A stretch of 64,000 nt of DNA from a virus. Location of the stretch: IMG/VR virus record IMGVR_UViG_3300019935_000002, positions 1 through 64,000 of that record. One strand, written 5' to 3'. Position 1 is the stretch's first letter, and every line of letters begins with the position of its first letter. Shown here in pieces: positions 48,726 through 60,792 of this stretch. The translations under genes and the position numbers were made by a program. A model generated the notes under the pieces. That model had not been told where the DNA came from. It ran no database searches and saw nothing but the letters and a program-made list of their open reading frames with translations.

Positions 48726-49337
48726 CTATCTGTCTGAGGGTTGGGTAGGCTCGGCAGGGGATGCCTTTATGATTTGACGCAGTACCGGCTTCCATCGCTT
48801 CCACCAGAGTAGAGCCCTTTTACCGTCCATCTCCAGAATGGCTCTGTCGTCAAAGCTCCACCAATCCTCGATAGGATGCTGCTCGCACCCAATCTGAACT
48901 ACCTCTGCCGTGTAGGTGACAGGGTAAGTGTCGCAGAGAATGGCCTTTATGTGGCGCATGTCTCCTAAACATCTCCAGAGCTTAGCTCCCCCAAGGTCAG
49001 CCCCTTCAAGATTGGCTCCCTCAAGATCGGCCCCTCCAAGGTTAGATCTTCTGAGGTCAGCCCCTCCAAGGTTAGATCTTCTGAGGTCAGCCCTCCATAG
49101 GTCAGCTCCTTTGAGGTCAGCTCCTTTGAGGTCAGCTCTCCATAGGTCAGCCCCTTCAAGGTTAGATCTTCTGAGGTTAGATCTTCTGAGGTCAGCTCTC
49201 CATAGCTTAGCGCCTTCGAGATTGGCTCTCTCACCTGTGGCCTTTCCATCCAACCAGTCCTTGTGCTTTCGCAGGATTTCAGGCAGGTCTATAGGTCTCC
49301 CCTTAACGTCAGTAGGGGCGAAAGTTGAGTCAGTCAT
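48726..49337 (-). CDS. Pentapeptide-repeat protein
   Basis: Run of A(D/N)Lxx and SNLxx repeats, then a C-terminal IGCEQH..WW domain. Confidence 0.9.
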   Translation of the reverse strand: MTDSTFAPTDVKGRPIDLPEILRKHKDWLDGKATGERANLEGAKLWRADLRRSNLRRSNLEGADLWRADLKGADLKGADLWRADLRRSNLGGADLRRSNLGGADLEGANLEGADLGGAKLWRCLGDMRHIKAILCDTYPVTYTAEVVQIGCEQHPIEDWWSFDDRAILEMDGKRALLWWKRWKPVLRQIIKASPAEPTQPSDR

Positions 49338-50129
49338 AGGTTCACCTTTGTGTGTGCGGGCTAGCCCACCAAATAAAAATGTCCGTCGACCCATTTGATG
49401 CGCATTCCCACCTTGTAGCAGGTAGCAAAAGCATCAGTCAGGGTCGTGTTGAGTGGTATGTCCACCTTTAGACGGATAGCCATCAGTAAGGCCTCGCAGA
49501 TTGGCAGATTGCCTCGCAGAATTTAAGGCAAGCCTCGTGCTCAGGCTCGGTTAGATTCGATTTCTCAATCTCCTCTCCTTCCTCACCAGTGGCCCAGTTG
49601 TGGTTCGTGATGGAGAACTGGTCAGAGAGCACCATCACAGTCACGCCATGGTTCGCAGACACCTCATTACGCAGGATCAGAGTTGCGCGTCCACGAGTGC
49701 TAAAATCCGCCTCCAGCTTGTAAGCCTTGAGGTAGCGCGGCAGCAGATCCGCCAGGCAGGCCCCAAGCTGGGTCAGGTCGGTGGGGTTGGCAAGGGTTGT
49801 GATTACGGGCTGGGTGTCTGAATGGGTCATAGAGTTGGTCACGAGGTTGGTCATGGGTTCACCTTTAGGGAAGTTGAGGCTTAGAGTTGTGTGCGTAGGT
49901 GTAACTTGGTGTCTGAATAGGCCTGAGGCTTATCAGAATGGATTCTAAGGCGTTTTCTTTGTTGACAGGTACGATGGCCGCACCTTTATGGGTTGAGCCT
50001 TAGAATCGAAAATAGGGCCACCTTTACTGACAGAGGGTTGAGAGTGGTCAGTCGGGGGGTGGGTCATGAGTCGAGGCACCTTTGCAGGTAGCGCCTAGCA
50101 GATGTAAGCAAAGGTGTCAATGCCCTGCT

Positions 50130-51230
50130 AGTGAGGTCAGAAAACAGGGTGGGTACTCGAAAATGCAAGAAATTTCGGAATTTTTTTTTTTGTTTTGAAA
50201 GTGCGCTCAGAAATGACGAATGTGACCGTGACACGATAAATAGTCACGCTAAAGTAATTATATTATTATTTATATTTATTAAAAAAAAAAAAAAAAAAAA
50301 AAGAAGTTCTGGCTAGTGTTGCTAACGCATTGCTGTTGCACCCTGCCAGTACCCGTGTAGAACGAAAATGGGACATTTTGACACAGGTTAAATCGCGGTT
50401 AATTCGCAATTAAATTCGGGTATAGAAGAACTAAAAAAATTTAATATAAATCTCTTATAACTCGATTTTCGGATTTTTTGCGTTCAAACAGGTGTTTGAA
50501 TGAAATCGTGGCAGACTTTAACCCGAAATTAACCACAAATTGACCCCGAATTAACCACTTTGTACCCGAAACCAATTGCAAACGTATTGCGAACTAACCG
50601 CGAACTAGTTGTGTATTAACCCGTCACCTAAATAATAAGTACCTTTAATCAGTTGTGATTAAATTGCGAACCTACCCCGTTCAAGTTGCTTATCAGTTGC
50701 TAATTAACCACTGATAAGACATCCCTAATATTCGGGTTAAGTCTTGGTTAAATCCGGGTACTAAATTTTGGGTTAAATCCGGGTACTAAATTTTGGGTTA
50801 AATCTGGGTAGTGTCGCAATTAAATCGTGGTAGGTTTACAGTTAGCTATTGGTAATTATTTTATAAAAATTATCTTATAAGAACTCAGTAGTTCAATATG
50901 AGTCTTTTATAAAAAATCCGAGGTTACAAACTGTTACAAAAATACCAAAACGGGTTAAATAAGGGTTAACTCTGTAATAGCGAAACCAAAGTTAACCCTT
51001 ATTTAACCTCTATTAAGTTGCTATTGAATTGCGAAACAACTTAGTTCTAACCCTTCTACTGTTGCGAATTAATAGTTATTTAACCCGAAACTAAGCGACC
51101 AAATTACGGCAAATCCGGCCTTTCGCGCCTGAAATCCAGCCTCTAACCTCTGCCGAATCTTGACGGTGTAAAAGGATTTTTCTATTAAAATCTCTTAAAT
51201 ATAAAATAATTTTTGCAGCCTGGACGACGA
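50130..51230. repeat. AT-rich non-coding region with 11-bp-phased repeats and a 25-bp tandem repeat (candidate origin or packaging terminus)
   Basis: TTAACCCGAAA-like units at 50518-50572; inverted units at 50391-50422; GGTTAAATCCGGGTACTAAATTTTG x2.6 at 50746-50810. Confidence 0.7.
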
Positions 51231-51257
51231 AAGCCCCAGCCGGTTGCCCGACTGGGG
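51229..51257 (-). terminator. Probable intrinsic terminator
   Basis: CCCCAGTCGG-GCAA-CCGGCTGGGG followed by CTTTC (short U tract). Confidence 0.5.
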
Positions 51258-51274
51258 TTAGCGTTTCCGCTTCA

Positions 51275-51302
51275 ATCTCTATTGCGCTTTGTTGTGCCTA
51301 GT
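51275..51302. repeat. 28-bp perfect inverted repeat, left arm
   Basis: ATCTCTATTGCGCTTTGTTGTGCCTAGT is the exact reverse complement of 52307-52334. Confidence 0.97.
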
Positions 51303-51332
51303 TGGGTTGGGAATTGATCAGGCTAGGCCTGA

Positions 51333-52987: not shown

Positions 52988-53017
52988 CAGCCCACAAACC
53001 TACTCAAGGAACTGAAC

Positions 53018-53578
53018 ATGAAATACGTTAAAGAGCTGAGGCTACATAAGGTTGGCGATATCCTCACCGGCAAAGATGGCAGAGACATGGGAGTCGTAGA
53101 GCACCTGAAATCAAAAGCCTGCGAAGTAGTGTCAAGCTCTAGCTTTATGGAAGCTGAGGAGCTAGTCCTAACCTTCAAATACGGCGCGCTTAGTGAAGAG
53201 TACCTGCATAGGTACGATAATCAGTTAGGCCCTTACCAACTGACTCTGCACCCCTCCGAGCAGAAGGTCGTCAGATCCGCCACCGTGTTCCTGCTGGGAG
53301 CGTCACTCTCCGATAAGAGTGTATGGAAGTTCATCGATAGCATTGAATGGGCCGATAGAATCACTGCCGAGGAGAGTATGTGCGAATACATTGACATCTC
53401 GCGAGGCGGCCAAGTGGTACTGACCATCACCGTAGAAAAGCCTCTGACCCAGGAAGATTTGATTGAGACCCTGGAGAAATCCCCGACCAACTACGTCATA
53501 AAGTACGTTGAGCTGACAGCTGATGATCGCTGCGACTTTGAAGAGGTGGACCGAAAAGCCTACGAGACTATAAGATAG
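53018..53578 (+). CDS. Hypothetical protein
   Basis: AAGGA SD; first ORF of the rightward arm. Confidence 0.65.
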   Translation: MKYVKELRLHKVGDILTGKDGRDMGVVEHLKSKACEVVSSSSFMEAEELVLTFKYGALSEEYLHRYDNQLGPYQLTLHPSEQKVVRSATVFLLGASLSDKSVWKFIDSIEWADRITAEESMCEYIDISRGGQVVLTITVEKPLTQEDLIETLEKSPTNYVIKYVELTADDRCDFEEVDRKAYETIR

Positions 53579-53632
53579 CAACTGGCCAGCTACGTGATTG
53601 ATATTACCGGCAACCCATTTACAAGGTGATTT

Positions 53633-53932
53633 ATGTCCAGACCACCCCGTAAGTCAGAGCCCGGACTTACTCGAATCAAGATGAAGTTCCACTTGTCGGG
53701 ACTAAGCTCGCCAGACCGGGCTGAGTCGTCTCTGGAGGCCGAGCGGCTACTAAGATCATGGGACTGTGTAACCTCATTATCTTGGGAAGTGAAGGAAGAC
53801 TGGATGTATGTCGACATCAAATTACTCCGAGGCTTCAAGACGTCGGCTGAGTTTAAGGTGGAGGTAGAACGGCGCATTAAGGGGCAAGTGTTCGCCTCCC
53901 TCCTTGTGATAACCGCAGCAGAGATAGCTTAA
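53633..53932 (+). CDS. Hypothetical protein
   Basis: AAGGTG SD. Confidence 0.6.
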   Translation: MSRPPRKSEPGLTRIKMKFHLSGLSSPDRAESSLEAERLLRSWDCVTSLSWEVKEDWMYVDIKLLRGFKTSAEFKVEVERRIKGQVFASLLVITAAEIA

Positions 53933-53941
53933 GGAACCACC

Positions 53942-54898
53942 ATGACCAAAAATTTTTCATCCCCCACACTCGACTACCACAACCTGCTTGTGGATCTGAA
54001 GTTGAACGGGCATACGGAATACAACGAACGTACCGGCAAGCGCTGTACGTTTCTTCTCAACAAGACTCTGACCTACGACAGGCTTCCTTATGTAGCCACG
54101 AAGAAGGTGGCGATTCGTTCTGCGGTGGCTGAGATGCTGGGCTACCTTAAGGGTTGCACGTCGGCTGCTGAGTTCCGAGCTTTAGGAACCAAGACATGGG
54201 ATGCCAATGCGAACGAGAACAAGGACTGGCTTGAGAATCCTGCTCGCAGGGGTCAGGACGACATGGGCCGGGTGTACGGGGCACAGGGAAGAGATTGGAT
54301 TTCTCCTGCTCATGGGCTTGACCGTTCTAAACCTCCTACTTTCTATGGCAACCTCCGCAGCACGGACCAACTGGCAAAAGTGCTTGACCATCTGCTTAAA
54401 AGAATCGACGACCGAGGCGAGATCATAACTTTCTGGAACCCAGGAGAATTTCATCTTGGCTGCCTGAGACCGTGCTTGCACACACACCACTTCTCTGTCA
54501 TGGACGGCAAGTTGTACCTGACCAGCACTCAGAGGTCGGCAGACGTTCCGCTGGGGCTGCCGTTCAACATGATCCAGCCTTGGTTCCTGCTTAAGTTTGT
54601 GGCCTGGCTGACAGGCATGGAGGCGGGCACTGTTACGCACCACATCGTCAACTACCACATCTACGAAGATCAGTGGGATGGCGTGGAAGAGCAGATCGGT
54701 CGTATAGAGGCTGGGATGATGTGCGACAACCGGAACAGGGAAGCGGCAGATGACTTTGCATTTTCCTCTGCTCTTCCTCAAGGCTGCGTGTTGGGATTAC
54801 AGGACGCACTGGACGAAATCAAGGAATTTAATACTGATTGCGTATGGTTCCCGGATGTTGACCATCTGTCGGCTATCGAGTTTCCTTTCTCTGTGTGA
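53942..54898 (+). CDS. thyA: Thymidylate synthase
   Basis: Motifs GRVYGAQGR, LRPCLH, QRSADVPLGLPFN (dUMP-specific Asn) and HIY. Confidence 0.95.
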   Translation: MTKNFSSPTLDYHNLLVDLKLNGHTEYNERTGKRCTFLLNKTLTYDRLPYVATKKVAIRSAVAEMLGYLKGCTSAAEFRALGTKTWDANANENKDWLENPARRGQDDMGRVYGAQGRDWISPAHGLDRSKPPTFYGNLRSTDQLAKVLDHLLKRIDDRGEIITFWNPGEFHLGCLRPCLHTHHFSVMDGKLYLTSTQRSADVPLGLPFNMIQPWFLLKFVAWLTGMEAGTVTHHIVNYHIYEDQWDGVEEQIGRIEAGMMCDNRNREAADDFAFSSALPQGCVLGLQDALDEIKEFNTDCVWFPDVDHLSAIEFPFSV

Positions 54899-54917
54899 CC
54901 GGACAGGCAGCTACTTG

Positions 54918-54946
54918 TTGACATAGGCTCAGAACCTGCCTAGTAT
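54918..54946 (+). promoter_or_regulatory. sigma70-like promoter of the ncRNA/tRNA operon
   Basis: TTGACA-17 nt-TAGTAT. Confidence 0.75.
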
Positions 54947-54952
54947 AGGGAC

Positions 54953-55611
54953 TGTTCAAATAGGTAGTTCCTTCCGGCTAGTCCGGAGGTTTTGGGTACC
55001 TCATCCAGGTACGGCATCTTAGCAGTGACACAGGCCTTTAAGGAGGTTCGACTGTGTAGCGGGTGCCTAATCGGCCGTAATGAGCAGCAGTGGGTTTTCT
55101 GAGTTCCCTTGAGCCGTCCGCCGGCACGGTCTGCGAATGCCGGCATCTGTTTGGTTTATGCGAAGCGATCTGGCCTCATCGCCTATAGATCGTGGAGGAA
55201 CCCCCATAAGTAGATGAGTGCTTGTGCAAGGGTGAGACTTAAACCGCTAAACAGGACGCCCTGCCAGCTAAGCTGGAGCCTGCACTAACCTGTAGTAAGG
55301 TCGAGCCCATGGCGGGTAATAAGTGCGTGGGACTATAGGGCAGTTGCAGGACTCTGCCACCCGCTGACTGACCAGCGGTTAAACAACACCTGCACCCGTG
55401 AAAGCGGAAACCCTTCGAGGTCGCAGAAGTAAAAGCGGCAACCGGCACCATCAGCGGTATATCTGGTGGTCGTTGGTTAGGGCTATTAGTTTGAAAAGGG
55501 TGTCTAAGTAAGCTTTCGGCCTCTGCATTCACCGATCAAAATACCACGCGGCCGCTTTAGAACAGAAGAGTGGAGAGTGAGGTTGGAATCCTCATAGCCC
55601 TAACCAATGAC
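54953..55611 (+). ncRNA. Large structured ncRNA candidate (GOLLD/ROOL-class)
   Basis: No plausible + strand ORF; own promoter; many hairpins; 17-bp terminal long-range helix; crossing helices; tRNA neighbourhood. Confidence 0.7.
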
Positions 55612-55638
55612 AATAATCTACGCAAGCAGGGTGTCATA

Positions 55639-56001
55639 ATGAGACAGCTAGACGACCACAAAATAAACCCAGCAAACGACACTATAAATATCACAGTTCT
55701 GGACGAACCTGGGGCAGGCGGAGCTTGCCACGAATATGAAATCAGCCACAGCGAAATGCCGTCGACTGTTATCAGCTTTCAGAACGGCCCGATTAGTGAA
55801 GAAGGGGTCGGAGTAAACGGCCTGACCCATGAAGTACTGCTGGCTATACTAGCTGATCGTCTGAGGGGTTTTCAGTCTGGCCCCTACGCATGTAAGGCCA
55901 ACGAGCAGGCGCTAACGAAGCTGGAAGAAGCGCAGCACTGGCTACAGCAGCGTACGCTGGAGCGCATGCGACGCGGCGTTGAGGGAACTCATAAGGTTTA
56001 A
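55639..56001 (+). CDS. tad1: Tad1-family anti-Thoeris/anti-CBASS nucleotide sponge
   Basis: GAGGACHEY, ISFQNGP, LLAILADRLRGFQSGPYAC..N..ALTKLEEA..W...R...R..RGVEGT match Tad1 along its whole length. Confidence 0.85.
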   Translation: MRQLDDHKINPANDTINITVLDEPGAGGACHEYEISHSEMPSTVISFQNGPISEEGVGVNGLTHEVLLAILADRLRGFQSGPYACKANEQALTKLEEAQHWLQQRTLERMRRGVEGTHKV

Positions 56002-56132
56002 GAGAACACTCCCCGGCAAGGAGTGATCGTCCGAGGGCGGGTTAGCAACCGTCAAGTGATCTTCGGGAGAATGAACGCGACGACCGTTCCGTTATTGCGG
56101 CTCACAACGCAGTGGCCTGACGGCCAAACTTT

Positions 56133-56207
56133 GGGCCTGTAGCTGGACGGTTCAAGCGGACGGCTCATAACCGTCTGACCCCGGTTCGATTCCGGGCAGG
56201 CCCACCA
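56133..56207 (+). tRNA. tRNA with CAT anticodon (Ile2 or Met)
   Basis: GGGCCTG/CAGGCCC acceptor, GACGG-CTCATAA-CCGTC anticodon arm, GGTTCGATTCC, encoded CCA. Confidence 0.9.
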
Positions 56208-56231
56208 CTAACTACACGAGAGGCAGAAATC

Positions 56232-56423
56232 ATGAAAACTTACGAAGAGTGGAAAGCTGATGTTGACCAAAAGGTCGATGATGCCGTCGCCGCAATGAAG
56301 CGAGTAAAGGCCGTTTTTGAGGAGATCGATAAGGTCGACACTAAGGGCGTCTCACCGACAGACGTACATGCCTTTGCGATTGCTGCGTCTCTTAAAATGA
56401 GTAAAGCCGCGGAGGAAATGTGA
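56232..56423 (+). CDS. Hypothetical protein within the tRNA cluster
   Basis: GAGG SD; 63 aa. Confidence 0.6.
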   Translation: MKTYEEWKADVDQKVDDAVAAMKRVKAVFEEIDKVDTKGVSPTDVHAFAIAASLKMSKAAEEM

Positions 56424-56701
56424 TGGACGTTTTCCCTAAGTGGTCAGTAGTAAATCTCGACAACGGCTATCAAGTGCTCGTAGAGCTGCGTGAACCGGAT
56501 GAAGACGAAGACGACCTAGAGACAGCGACCGCAATTGTAAGCTATAAGACGGCGTTCCCGGAGGCGTTGATGGAAGACAAGTCCTACGTAAAAGATAAAG
56601 CTCCAGAAGAGATTGACTTCGCGGCTATTACGACTACTGAGATTTGCCAGAAACGATGGGATGAGATGGACAAATCCTACAACGCCTTCTACTCTTTATG
56701 A
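56420..56701 (+). CDS. Acidic hypothetical protein within the tRNA cluster
   Basis: GGAGG SD; coupled to the previous ORF. Confidence 0.6.
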   Translation: MMDVFPKWSVVNLDNGYQVLVELREPDEDEDDLETATAIVSYKTAFPEALMEDKSYVKDKAPEEIDFAAITTTEICQKRWDEMDKSYNAFYSL

Positions 56702-56707
56702 TTCACA

Positions 56708-56781
56708 GCGCCATTAGCTCAGCCGGATAGAGCGGTCGTCTCCTAAGCGACAGGCCGTAGGTTCAAGTCCTGCATGGCGCA
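56708..56781 (+). tRNA. tRNA-Arg(CCT)
   Basis: GCGCCAT/ATGGCGC acceptor, GTCGT-CTCCTAA-GCGAC anticodon arm; CCA not encoded. Confidence 0.9.
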
Positions 56782-56785
56782 TCAC

Positions 56786-56859
56786 AGGTCGGTAGCTCAA
56801 AGGTAGAGCAGAGGTTCCAAACTCTCGTGTCGAGGGTTCGATTCCCTCCCGGTCTGCCA
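56786..56859 (+). tRNA. tRNA-Trp(CCA) with an irregular anticodon stem
   Basis: AGGTCGG/CCGGTCT acceptor, TT-CCA-AA loop, GGTTCGATTCC, CCA end. Confidence 0.75.
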
Positions 56860-56860
56860 A

Positions 56861-56934
56861 GCGGGTATAGTTCAAAGGTAGAACATCAGCCTTCCAAGCT
56901 GAGAATGCGAGTTCGATTCTCGTTGCCCGCTCCA
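56861..56934 (+). tRNA. tRNA-Gly(TCC)
   Basis: GCGGGTA/TGCCCGC acceptor, TCAGC-CTTCCAA-GCTGA anticodon arm, TCCA end. Confidence 0.93.
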
Positions 56935-57072
56935 ACCACACTACTCAGGGTGGTCAACTATGATGCTAATCCTTATCGCGCTTCTGATTCTTTTCCACTT
57001 AGTATTCGGCTAACTTGACTTCGAGCTGTGATAAACTCTACACAATGTTACACGCACAGTAGAGGGCGTCCT

Positions 57073-57408
57073 ATGTTCAGAGAAAGAGAAGTGTCAGGTC
57101 CAGTCAACTCGGCTATCGAAGTTGATGACCCTTACTTTAGTCGCCTCCCTAAAGGTTATATCACTGTCGCCTACTTTCAGGATCAGGCCTGCACCGTCCC
57201 TGCCACCCCCTCGACAGGCGACGTAACCCTGCACGTCTGGATGCGTGGAGGACAAGAGCCTTTGGAGCTTGAAGACTCGCCACTGCCCTCTACTGATGTA
57301 GCGTCATTTGGATCGTGGGCTGGGCCAGCTATAAAGTTCAAAGCTACAGCCAATGCGGTAGCTGGAGCTGCCTACTACAAGATGACAATTACAGCGAATA
57401 GAGGCTAA
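57073..57408 (+). CDS. Hypothetical (probable virion) protein
   Basis: GAGGG SD; beta-rich 111 aa. Confidence 0.55.
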   Translation: MFREREVSGPVNSAIEVDDPYFSRLPKGYITVAYFQDQACTVPATPSTGDVTLHVWMRGGQEPLELEDSPLPSTDVASFGSWAGPAIKFKATANAVAGAAYYKMTITANRG

Positions 57409-57411
57409 GAC

Positions 57412-58776
57412 ATGAGAGCACCAAGAGCCGTACCAAGTCGAGGTATAGAGATACGCGATGAGCACATCTTCTCCGACACCGCTGCCAGAGACGCCTACTT
57501 CTCCGCTAACCCTGGCGAGCTTAGAGCTAGCCTCTACGTCTCTGCTGGCAGCCAGCTCTTTAAGCGGGTTGCCGGGCAGTGGGCAGACTTGACCCCGGTT
57601 ATTCAAGGTCAACCGGGGAGCGAGACCGACTTCTCAGAGATACCTACTGATCACTTAGTCGCTATTGGTCTGGACAACAGACCATACGATTCAGGGCTGG
57701 TAAAACAAGGCAGAAACTTAAAGACCGAAGGGAGCATACAGGCAGGCCCATCCAGCCTGCTGATTGGTCCGAAGTTCCGGATGAGTTCAGGTGTGAACGC
57801 CGTAGCGTTCACACTGGGTACAGGTCAGGACGCGGTGGGTATCAACACCACCTATGACTCGCAGGGGTCGACTTACCCTTTCTACTACAAACTGGCCCCT
57901 ATGGAGAATTTGACGGTCAATAACAAGACTGACCAAATGGTCACGTCTCCATTTGAGCTGCAGTACTCCACTTTCGGCGATAACCTCACCTACGACTTCA
58001 TGTTTATACCTGCCGAAGCTGGAGAGATGCGGGTAAGGTACTGGCTAGGCACAGCCATCACTGACGAAGACCTAATCTTTGATGAGATCAGGGAGGTTAC
58101 TCAGGCAGAGGTGGACGCTGGAGTCCCGGTACAATTTGGCGTAGGCAACAAGTACATTCTGCCACAAGGACAAAACTTGTACGTCCAGTTCTCAGGTGTT
58201 GACCTGGTTGGAGGCTATCCTGACTCAGGCCCATTTGCAGGACAGCTTCTCCCTTACTTTGTCAGCCAGATTCACCCTTACCGCAAGATAACCTTCACCT
58301 CGTTCGGATGGTACGACTACAGCAACTCCCTGCCAGCGCAGAGCATCAGCAAGAATACCTGGACGACACTGCTAAATGACGGTGACGGCCCCTACACTAA
58401 CAAGGGGTACCCTCCACACGCAGTAGGAGAAATGCTGGACCCACTAACAGGCAGGATTCTGTTCGACGATCTTGACCCGGGAGACGAGGTCTATATCCGA
58501 CATACTCTGTCGGTCAAGCCGAATGCCAATGGCGTGACTTACTTCGTAAGACACCTTCTTGGCGACGGAGCTGGCCAGTATAGCTTGCCAATAGGCAGGC
58601 CTACTAAATTAGAGCAGGGCGGTGGAACGTCCACAGGTGACTTCGTAGTAGATACTCGTATTTACATAGGCGACAATAATACTCTTATCGGAGGGGCTGT
58701 CCCTCAGATACAGTTAAGCGGAACCGCCGAGGTAGCCTACAAAGGCGCCTACATTTCAGTAACCAGGAGAGGGTAA
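57412..58776 (+). CDS. Probable virion fibre/decoration protein
   Basis: Gly/Thr-rich beta protein with the N-terminal 'F.D.AARDAYF' motif. Confidence 0.45.
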   Translation: MRAPRAVPSRGIEIRDEHIFSDTAARDAYFSANPGELRASLYVSAGSQLFKRVAGQWADLTPVIQGQPGSETDFSEIPTDHLVAIGLDNRPYDSGLVKQGRNLKTEGSIQAGPSSLLIGPKFRMSSGVNAVAFTLGTGQDAVGINTTYDSQGSTYPFYYKLAPMENLTVNNKTDQMVTSPFELQYSTFGDNLTYDFMFIPAEAGEMRVRYWLGTAITDEDLIFDEIREVTQAEVDAGVPVQFGVGNKYILPQGQNLYVQFSGVDLVGGYPDSGPFAGQLLPYFVSQIHPYRKITFTSFGWYDYSNSLPAQSISKNTWTTLLNDGDGPYTNKGYPPHAVGEMLDPLTGRILFDDLDPGDEVYIRHTLSVKPNANGVTYFVRHLLGDGAGQYSLPIGRPTKLEQGGGTSTGDFVVDTRIYIGDNNTLIGGAVPQIQLSGTAEVAYKGAYISVTRRG

Positions 58777-59252
58777 TGATTGCATCAAAATTAGACTGGT
58801 CTCAAATAGAAAACTTCAAAAAGTCAGAGTTCCCTGCAGGCGTATTACGCCAGACGTCTGGCGAGCTGATAGAACAGCTGGCGAAGTACCGGACTCACCT
58901 GGGAAAGGCCCTGCATCCGTCTCCTAACCATAAGGGGTGGGCGAGGACAACCGGATCAGAGGGTTCCGAGCACTACGCTGTAGGGCGGCGATCCACAGCC
59001 GGTGACGTCTTCCTGTCATCAAGTCAAGATGCCAGATACGCATTTACTCTTGCCTGTCAGTACTTTAATGGCGTTGGCATCTACTATGACACTAAGCTTA
59101 ATGGCCAGCCACGCATCATGCTCCATCTCGACTTACGGGACACGCCGACGGTATGGTGCCGCCACCACGGAGAATACCTGTATCCTGCTAAAGGCGGACG
59201 AGATGCTGACGCATTCTACCACCTGCTGAACATAGGACTACCGCAACCATGA
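58776..59252 (+). CDS. M15-family Zn peptidase (endolysin candidate)
   Basis: NFKKSEF, SEH-x8-GD and HLDLR Zn-ligand pattern. Confidence 0.7.
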   Translation: MIASKLDWSQIENFKKSEFPAGVLRQTSGELIEQLAKYRTHLGKALHPSPNHKGWARTTGSEGSEHYAVGRRSTAGDVFLSSSQDARYAFTLACQYFNGVGIYYDTKLNGQPRIMLHLDLRDTPTVWCRHHGEYLYPAKGGRDADAFYHLLNIGLPQP

Positions 59253-59938
59253 AAAACCTGTCAGACAAGTTCTTTACGATAGTTGCGGCTATGGCTAAGG
59301 ATCGAACTATCGGGGATGCCGGAAAACTTCCTTGGCACATGCCGTCCGAGTTGCGTCACTTTAAATCTATCACCACAGGAAAGGTCGTAATCGCCGGTAG
59401 GAAGACCTACGAATCGCTCCCAAAAGCAGCGCTGGCAGGGAGGCAATACGTAGTGGTCAGCAGAGACCCCTACTACGTTCTACGTAGGGCAGAGGACATA
59501 CTGGCCACGGATCTTGAAGAGGCCGTGTTTGCAGCAGCTTACACCTCACCGTCAGCCGAGATTATGGTAATCGGGGGTGGCGAGATATTCCGACAGGCTG
59601 CCGAGTTCGCGGACCGCGCCATCATCTCTACGATAGATGCCGAGTTCCAGGGAGACACCGAGTTCCAGGCGGACTTGTCTGGATGGAGGTCGGACAAGGA
59701 GGAAGAGATCCGCTGCGAGACATCCGAACTAACTGCCACGATACACTACCTAACAAGGCCTGCAGATGGGAGACTGACACCCTGCACCGGCATCTGTTCA
59801 TCTTCCTCCCTTGGCGATCCGGTATGTGCAGGCTGCGGGAGAAAGTCAAAGGAGGTGGACTTATGGTATCTCCAACCAAAAGCCTATAAAAGGCTGGTAA
59901 CGAGTCGATTAAAGGAGAGTCAAAGTGACAGGACTTAA
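59249..59938 (+). CDS. folA: Dihydrofolate reductase with a C-terminal Cys-rich (DUF1289-like) domain
   Basis: IGDAGKLPWHMPSELRHFK, GRKTYESL, IGGGEIF and GDT, then PCTGIC...CAGCGR...EV..W. Confidence 0.88.
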   Translation: MKNLSDKFFTIVAAMAKDRTIGDAGKLPWHMPSELRHFKSITTGKVVIAGRKTYESLPKAALAGRQYVVVSRDPYYVLRRAEDILATDLEEAVFAAAYTSPSAEIMVIGGGEIFRQAAEFADRAIISTIDAEFQGDTEFQADLSGWRSDKEEEIRCETSELTATIHYLTRPADGRLTPCTGICSSSSLGDPVCAGCGRKSKEVDLWYLQPKAYKRLVTSRLKESQSDRT

Positions 59939-60504: not shown

Positions 60505-60792
60505 ATGAACACTAAAGAGCTTATTAAGGTAGTGCACGAAGAAACTGGGCTGACTTATCGCGAAAGCGAGCGAGCTGTCAGGTCTGTAATTGGTCAAGTT
60601 AAAGAGGCGGTTGCAGGTGGGGACGAGGTCAACCTGAAGGGTTTACTGAATATTAAACGTGTCCACCGTAATGCCAGAGTATATAAGTCCGGAATGACAG
60701 GCAGCACAGTGACTAAACCAGCGCACACTCGGCCAGTTATTAGTCTTTCGGGCCCGCTGGTGAAAGAAGCCACGCGCGATATTAACGGTTGA
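60505..60792 (+). CDS. HU/IHF-like DNA-binding protein
   Basis: MNTKELIKVV...GDEVNLKGL...RNAR...TG pattern. Confidence 0.8.
   Translation: MNTKELIKVVHEETGLTYRESERAVRSVIGQVKEAVAGGDEVNLKGLLNIKRVHRNARVYKSGMTGSTVTKPAHTRPVISLSGPLVKEATRDING

Follow-up and report, generated by a model that had tools for sequence, protein, structure and literature searches.

A 740-nt gap (54899-55638) between the thymidylate synthase and Tad1 genes of an uncultured phage raises the question of what is kept there: a small protein, a non-coding RNA, or sequence without a role. The initial annotation had read it as one pseudoknotted RNA of ~660 nt, of the GOLLD/ROOL class or new, heading an operon of Tad1 and tRNA genes. 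The source genome is a complete IMG/VR phage of 78,394 bp with direct terminal repeats, and the window, to which all positions refer, is its first 64 kb (64,000 nt). Sequencing runs containing the stretch are mostly microbial-mat metagenomes, none of them being listed as an RNA run. The nearest cultured phages are 83-kb Vibrio phages with a terminase identity of 34%, and no region comparable to the RNA described here was found in them. The phage encodes a large terminase, and its DNA polymerase, primase, helicases and SbcCD-like nuclease all lie on the minus strand. The ORF-poor gap sits inside a short plus-strand gene block, arranged as follows.

Start of the block, plus strand: two small ORFs, thymidylate synthase (53942-54898), the 740-nt gap, Tad1 (55639-56001)
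After Tad1, plus strand: tRNA-Met, two small ORFs, three tRNAs
End of the block, plus strand: DUF7265 protein, 454-aa protein, 158-aa protein, dihydrofolate reductase, 171-aa protein, HU-like protein

The dihydrofolate reductase (59249-59938, plus strand) carries a C-terminal DUF1289 fusion and shares the block with thymidylate synthase; the HU-like protein is encoded at 60505-60792. A replication origin within the gap was considered and rejected, as the G+C content there is normal (52-53%) and an AT-rich repeat region lies at 50-51.3 kb instead. That region (50000-51332, 34-41% G+C) is ORF-poor, contains a 751-nt gap, lies near the switch from minus to plus gene orientation and is likely to be an origin or early control region. 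A 222-aa pentapeptide-repeat protein (Pfam PF00805, E 1.6e-40), a possible DNA mimic or anti-defence candidate, is encoded at 48726-49394 on the minus strand.

Carriers of related sequence were found on two IMG/VR contigs, L091 and L092, and as one diverged variant in sequencing run X8. L091 is a 14.6 kb contig whose terminase and thymidylate synthase are 82% and 62% identical, respectively, to those of the window phage; relatives of the thymidylate-synthase protein were 96% and 56-62% identical, one of them being encoded on L091. The GenBank phage collection, searched by blastn in distant mode with the window and L091 as queries, gave no match. At 73 other Tad1 loci from IMG/VR (blastn, nhmmer), neither similarity to the RNA nor a long upstream gap nor comparable tRNA neighbours were seen, and 15 thymidylate-synthase loci from IMG/VR (blastn, nhmmer) likewise lacked the RNA and had neither gaps nor neighbouring tRNAs of this kind. 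Searches with the terminase yielded L090-L092 and otherwise distant phages only, DNA pattern scans of IMG/VR picked up L091 and L092 alone or nothing, and motif scans of JGI metagenomes and of 185,579 genomes returned chance matches only. No second copy of the RNA was found in its own genome. Judged by these searches, the RNA appears to be very rare, occurring in three or four related uncultured phage lineages.

The absence of a credible plus-strand ORF from ~690 nt, claimed initially, was borne out: the longest plus-strand ORF within 54899-55638 is at most 37 aa. Minus-strand ORFs of 97 aa (55239-55532) and 68 aa do exist, and a small unannotated protein, or more than one, could in principle be encoded there. 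However, searches with the ORFs of the gap gave no credible family match in Pfam or PHROG, the 97-aa ORF had no homologue among 5.8 billion proteins, the minus-strand ORFs are not kept in L091 or L092, and they oppose the local direction of transcription. A block common to the window and L091 also argues against a protein, since a 10-nt indel shifts its reading frame and the flanking nucleotides are still conserved. Recoding (table 4; TAG=Q) opened no long frame, and the gap showed no remnant of a decayed protein gene. The stretch is non-coding, and a small protein is hardly a tenable explanation for it.

The start of the non-coding stretch is organized as follows.

54918-54946, plus strand: sigma-70-type promoter, TTGACA-17-TAGTAT, matching the consensus at 10 of 12 positions
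54971-54989, plus strand: 5' hairpin with a 7-bp stem and then UUUU, lineage-specific, absent from L091 and L092
54994-55146, plus strand: conserved 5' core of ~150 nt, delimited by a covariance model and compensatory changes
5' end of the core: invariant, apparently unpaired block GGGUA.CUCAUCCAGG.ACG
55013-55067, plus strand: H2, a three-part hairpin inside the core
Middle section of the core, between H2 and H3: contains the invariant AAUGAG
55120-55144, plus strand: H3, a hairpin at the 3' end of the core

The promoter confirms the initial annotation, which had placed a consensus promoter ahead of the stretch. A stricter consensus pattern is matched by three sites only in the 78-kb genome, 54918-54946 among them, and transcription would be expected to start near 54953. 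Equivalent promoters lie at the same place in L091 and L092 (TTGACG or TTGACA, a 17-nt spacer and TATATT), and the promoter stretch is also kept in X8. Across the lineages of the window, L091 and L092 the core begins 20-55 nt past the expected start, and the promoter plus this ~150-nt core is all that the three have in common. No terminator-like site was found downstream of the 5' hairpin on the plus strand of the window, and none after the core in the window or L092. H3 was considered as a terminator and rejected, its U-rich tail being present in the window only.

Within the core, three invariant and apparently unpaired blocks (the 5' block given above, UUAGC..UGA and AAUGAG) are separated by helices that vary and compensate. 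In H2a, GGCAUCU/GGGUGCC of the window corresponds to GCUAUCU/GGGUAGC in L091, two double changes; in H2c, CACAG/CUGUG corresponds to CCUGU/ACAGG in L092, with four of the five pairs altered on both sides. H3 shows one G-C to A-U change, with additional compensations in both H2d and H3; of the seven H2a pairs, three are broken in L092. A covariance model was built from the window alone with its derived structure and searched against 252 kb of loci. It matched L092 (72 bits, E 8e-20) and L091 (43 bits, E 7e-11) and no further locus. In the alignment of these sequences, the three on which all of the covariation rests, 94.9% of cells are paired and 11 of the 32 modelled pairs show a double-sided change, figures that are inflated because the alignment was fitted to the window-derived structure. 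None of 500 shuffled controls reached any of the pairing measures, and sliding the partners by 1-3 columns reduced pairing to 36-46%. The consensus from unguided RNAalifold on a MAFFT alignment was weak (-14.7 kcal/mol), owing to misalignment of the 3' half of L091. G-U pairs within H2 are compatible with the plus strand only. The compensatory changes in two related phages show the 5' ~150 nt to be a conserved RNA, predicted to fold as the plus strand.

All eight short helices listed in the initial annotation are present in the sequence, with coordinates correct to within 1 nt. One of them, the GUACCU/AGGUAC hairpin, was set aside as a structural element, as it is broken in L091 and L092 and the block is conserved as sequence. 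A long-range pairing of CUCAU with AUGAG is possible, all of its positions being invariant. A C/D-box or K-turn at the AAUGAG region was rejected, given only a 12.9-bit snoRNA match and a GA beside the 3' strand that is not conserved. A 12-nt complementarity between 55110-55121 and the anticodon arm of tRNA-Met was treated as chance because it is not conserved in L091.

Membership of a known RNA family was examined with Infernal cmscan against Rfam 15. At gathering scores, the whole window yielded four tRNAs only. At E<=10, positions 54700-56250, two sub-windows of ~200 nt and the relatives L091 and L092 gave no GOLLD or ROOL match and nothing else of relevance. The assignment to GOLLD (RF01998) or ROOL (RF03087) is therefore not upheld by the Rfam covariance models. 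The surroundings do resemble those of GOLLD and ROOL in the phage setting and the proximity of tRNAs; conservation between lineages ends after the 5' core.

The remainder of the stretch and the region into which it runs contain the following features.

55142-55436, plus strand: optional central block of ~295 nt with no counterpart in L091 or L092
55437-55610, plus strand: 3' domain, consisting of a hairpin (55448-55471) and then a multi-helix junction closed by a 17-bp helix
55578-55594, plus strand: T-loop-like hairpin with a 5-bp stem, a G-C closing pair and the loop UUGGAAU
55609-56002, plus strand: Tad1 cassette (CDS 55639-56001), accessory and inserted where the RNA meets the tRNA region
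56003-56132, plus strand: 130-nt spacer leading into tRNA-Met; in the Tad1-less form of X8 it comes immediately after the RNA
56133-56207, plus strand: tRNA-Met(CAU), the first downstream tRNA
56708-56934, plus strand: cluster of three tRNAs, namely Arg(CCU), a tRNA with an irregular anticodon loop, and Gly(UCC)

Past the core, no similarity was detectable among the window, L091 and L092, so far as these sequences go, and the remaining ~500 nt appear to be specific to this lineage. In L091 the core is followed by ~225 unrelated nt and then directly by tRNA-Arg and tRNA-Met; an 11-bp hairpin with a U-rich tail lies ~60 nt before the tRNAs. In L092 a 19-codon ORF and no tRNA follow the core. This ORF (3953-4012 of L092, minus strand), directly past the core, is strongly hydrophobic and has a good ribosome-binding site. 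Similarity to the 3' domain was found in neither contig. For the 295-nt block, no group I or group II intron was matched in Rfam (E<=10). A group I intron, which requires a U preceding the 5' splice site and a G at the 3' end of the intron, was rejected, as no U precedes the insert in any of the five possible registers of the GGCA-repeat junction described below.

In the 3' domain, the 17-bp long-range helix noted initially is present, with both strands displaced by one position from the claimed coordinates: 14 Watson-Crick pairs, extended to 17 bp, join 55470-55486 to 55594-55610. A perfect 14-nt inverted repeat within ~120 nt is expected ~0.04 times per 64 kb by our estimate, and is thus unlikely to have arisen by chance. 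The 8-nt complementarity proposed to form a pseudoknot with this helix also exists as described, between AAAGCGGC (55432-55439) and GCCGCTTT (55551-55558); this 8-bp pairing and the 5-nt loop pairing are both within chance expectation. Compared with 200 shuffles, the 3' domain alone has a fold z-score of -3.76. For the whole 696 nt the z-score is -2.48 on the plus strand and -1.19 on the minus strand, and most 200-nt windows give about -1.1 to -1.4 on the plus strand, no better than some nearby coding windows, and about 0 on the minus strand. From these helix checks and z-scores, the stretch is mildly more structured than chance on the plus strand and contains one clearly non-random long helix.

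The X8 variant allowed the arrangement of these blocks to be compared across 53000-57500 of the window. Identity was ~85% for thymidylate synthase, 94% for the promoter plus core, 95% for 55335-55470, 98% for 55448-55608 (3 differences in 161 nt) and ~94-95% for the downstream genes. With the RNA at 94-98% and its neighbours at ~94-95%, the similarity may reflect recent exchange rather than selection. In one X8 contig, 55141 is joined to 55437 across a 4-nt GGCA repeat, so that 295 nt are missing and H3 is intact; this deletion is borderline, since only 34 letters extend past the joint. Another X8 contig covers 55335-55470, and forms with and without the 295-nt block both seem to exist. The claim of a single ~660-nt unit does not hold up against these data, given that only the first ~150 nt are common to L091 and L092 and that one X8 contig is without the 295-nt middle block.

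In a further X8 contig only a single A separates 55608 from 56003, and the whole Tad1 cassette is absent; the spacer 56003-56132 follows, differing at 5 of 107 nt. The plus strand of this spacer yielded no intrinsic terminator. The neighbouring gene does encode Tad1 (Thoeris anti-defence 1): phmmer against the PDB matched the solved Tad1 proteins 8kbb (E 1e-17) and 7uav/8kbg (E 1.3e-14), and PHROG 2428 was matched with E 3e-32. The cassette is missing from L091 and L092 as well as X8, and the flanks of Tad1 in other phages have nothing in common with this locus. Since the cassette is absent in X8 and its flanks elsewhere are unrelated, Tad1 was inserted later, and the RNA is modular. The suggested functional link between the RNA and Tad1 thus finds no backing, with the cassette missing from all three relatives and the RNA present at none of the 73 other Tad1 loci.

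In X8, 532 unrelated bases stand in place of the tRNA-Met stretch (56110-56218). This replacement and the Tad1 insertion together suggest a hotspot of cargo exchange, possibly with other counter-defence genes. The two small ORFs within 56232-56701 (63 and 93 aa) had no Pfam or PHROG match. The irregular tRNA (56786-56859) scores 51 bits with the Rfam tRNA model; ARAGORN draws a 6-nt anticodon loop (8-nt if a G.A pair opens) and names no anticodon ('cc', Gly or Trp), and the gene may be an unusual decoder or a damaged tRNA. The depths of the X8 contigs range ~9-fold, from 35 to 321, with the flanks at 35-63 and the RNA 3' part and tRNA region at 137 and 321. These are depths per contig, and the spread could reflect several co-occurring phages that carry this module, or a run in which RNA was sequenced.

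Taken together, a fixed promoter and core with no terminator behind them in the window and L092, cargo that is exchanged, and invariant unpaired blocks are best fitted by a leader. We therefore favour, at about even odds (a probability of roughly 0.5), a new, rare and modular structured leader RNA that would head a variable transcript of tRNAs and accessory genes. The functional unit, we infer, would be the promoter plus the core, acting as a structured leader with which a long transcript begins. The cargo after the core differs by lineage: the 295-nt block, the 3' domain, Tad1 and tRNAs in the window, ~225 nt and tRNAs in L091, and the 19-codon ORF in L092. Co-transcription is indicated by the lack of a detectable plus-strand terminator in the window and by the L091 leader, which abuts tRNA-Arg; the L091 hairpin with its U-rich tail would be more in keeping with a discrete, terminated RNA than with a pure leader. 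Most likely, in our view, the leader would act on its own transcript. The invariant unpaired blocks might hold a partner, for example RNA polymerase or a phage or host protein, and its binding might allow transcription to continue, or the precursor to survive, through the structured cargo. Cleavage by RNase P at the first tRNA could then free the upstream RNA. The extra ~500 nt would be lineage-specific add-ons, and Tad1 a late insert simply using the promoter of the leader.

The main rival to a leader is a discrete, stable and trans-acting large RNA that comprises the whole ~660 nt (or ~790 nt, reaching to tRNA-Met, in the Tad1-less form), a new class of GOLLD/ROOL-like kind that would be produced along with the tRNAs and released by the enzymes that process them. 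It would account for a stretch that is ORF-free, has a strong promoter and adjoins tRNAs, and for the 17-bp closing helix and the low z-score of the 3' domain, where 3 of 161 nt differ in X8 against ~5-6% for the neighbours. Abundant unclassified non-coding RNAs have also been reported in the lytic phages ICP1 (PMC7567579) and phage K (PMC9241854), and the possible terminator of L091 would close an RNA of ~345 nt. However, a unit of this size is difficult to reconcile with conservation in L091 and L092 that is limited to the first ~150 nt, with the loss of the middle block in one X8 contig, with the lack of a terminator or defined 3' end in the window, with the modest z-score overall and with the lack of an Rfam relationship, and we regard it as doubtful. 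A bolder form of the idea is a new class of large modular trans-acting RNA, in which the core would nucleate lineage-specific domains (among them a stem-closed four-way junction bearing a T-loop). Such an RNA would be made at high level with the tRNAs and serve, for example, as an assembly, as a scaffold or as a decoy for tRNA-recognising enzymes or defences, and the RNA-tRNA junction would also be a landing site for anti-defence cassettes, Tad1 being one; we consider this decidedly unlikely. Conversely, everything beyond a promoter-proximal element might be non-functional filler, the remains of cassettes at a recombination hotspot beside tRNAs, with helices of no role. The wholly different content past the core between lineages, the gain and loss of blocks at short repeats in X8, the exchange of Tad1 and the tRNA-Met region and the ordinary local z-scores are all as such filler would predict. 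It is unlikely nonetheless, as a helix with 14 perfect pairs extended to 17 bp would seldom occur by chance, the 3' domain folds well beyond its shuffles and is the best-conserved part in X8, and no decayed gene was traced.

A fourth explanation takes up the decoy idea in another form, in which the 3' domain (55470-55610) would mimic a tRNA and engage tRNA-directed enzymes or defence nucleases, as their decoy or their substrate, in parallel with Tad1. Its appeal lies in the T-loop-like hairpin, with 8 nt of the long helix (3' strand) and then A-CCA behind it, in a similar hairpin (loop UUUGAAU) that ends the L091 leader 12 nt before tRNA-Arg, and in the nearby tRNA genes. ARAGORN, however, found no credible tRNA or tmRNA in the 3' domain at default, relaxed or intron-allowing settings, and the Rfam tRNA, tmRNA and YrlA models gave nothing on 55440-55640 (201 nt) at E<=10; the weak YrlA match in L091 (21 bits, threshold 69) overlaps with a genuine tRNA. 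The CCA is base-paired within the 17-bp helix, a D-arm and an anticodon arm cannot be drawn, L091 has no CCA at the right offset, L092 is without the 3' domain altogether, and Tad1 arrived later. Mimicry of a tRNA is thus very unlikely, and the leader reading remains the one we prefer.

Several known systems invite comparison with such a putative leader RNA. HK022 put (~70 nt, two stem-loops) and lambda nut (a boxA and boxB pair) are antitermination RNAs of lambdoid phages, structured and encoded just past strong promoters, and work in cis on the transcribing polymerase whatever genes follow. The leader core differs from both in its length of ~150 nt and in its fold, the likeness being in position only, and neither a boxA nor a boxB is kept across the window, L091 and L092. 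T4 species 1 and 2 (rnaC, rnaD) are stable non-coding RNAs of the tRNA cluster with no known role, which are co-transcribed with it and released by the tRNA-processing machinery; they are ~120-140 nt and lie among and after the tRNAs. Compared by description only, the leader RNA differs from them in being longer and in lying at the 5' end, directly behind the promoter. GOLLD and ROOL are long ORF-free RNAs of phages and prophages that often lie beside tRNAs, may be co-transcribed with them and have no known function (PMC5737381; bioRxiv 10.1101/2024.12.08.627333), and RNAs of this kind form multimeric RNA-only assemblies (bioRxiv 10.1101/2024.12.08.627333). The leader RNA is like them in position and context; whereas they conserve an ornate fold of ~580-800 nt, it conserves ~150 nt and, unlike them, is modular with optional blocks and occurs in three or four related uncultured phages. 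The ~800-nt transcript of ICP1 and the lncRNAs of phage K are long non-coding transcripts from ORF-less gaps of lytic phages (PMC7567579, PMC9241854); the former was likened to GOLLD and ROOL by size (PMC7567579), and the latter, which lie near tRNAs, by position and abundance (PMC9241854). Those RNAs were shown by RNA-seq, whereas the leader RNA is predicted from sequence; no sequence relationship to them was found, the phage collection being without a match. The leader RNA is a member of none of these groups: GOLLD, ROOL, the ICP1 and phage K non-coding RNAs, put or nut.

The element is best described as a putative phage non-coding RNA associated with tRNA genes, with limited covariation support. 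Its present value is as a lead, given how rare it is, with three or four uncultured lineages carrying it. It is a candidate for a new RNA family, with covariation support and no Rfam relative, and its small conserved core should be easier to dissect than an RNA of 600-800 nt. Cargo appears to be exchanged at the RNA-tRNA junction, and such junctions may help to find new counter-defence genes.
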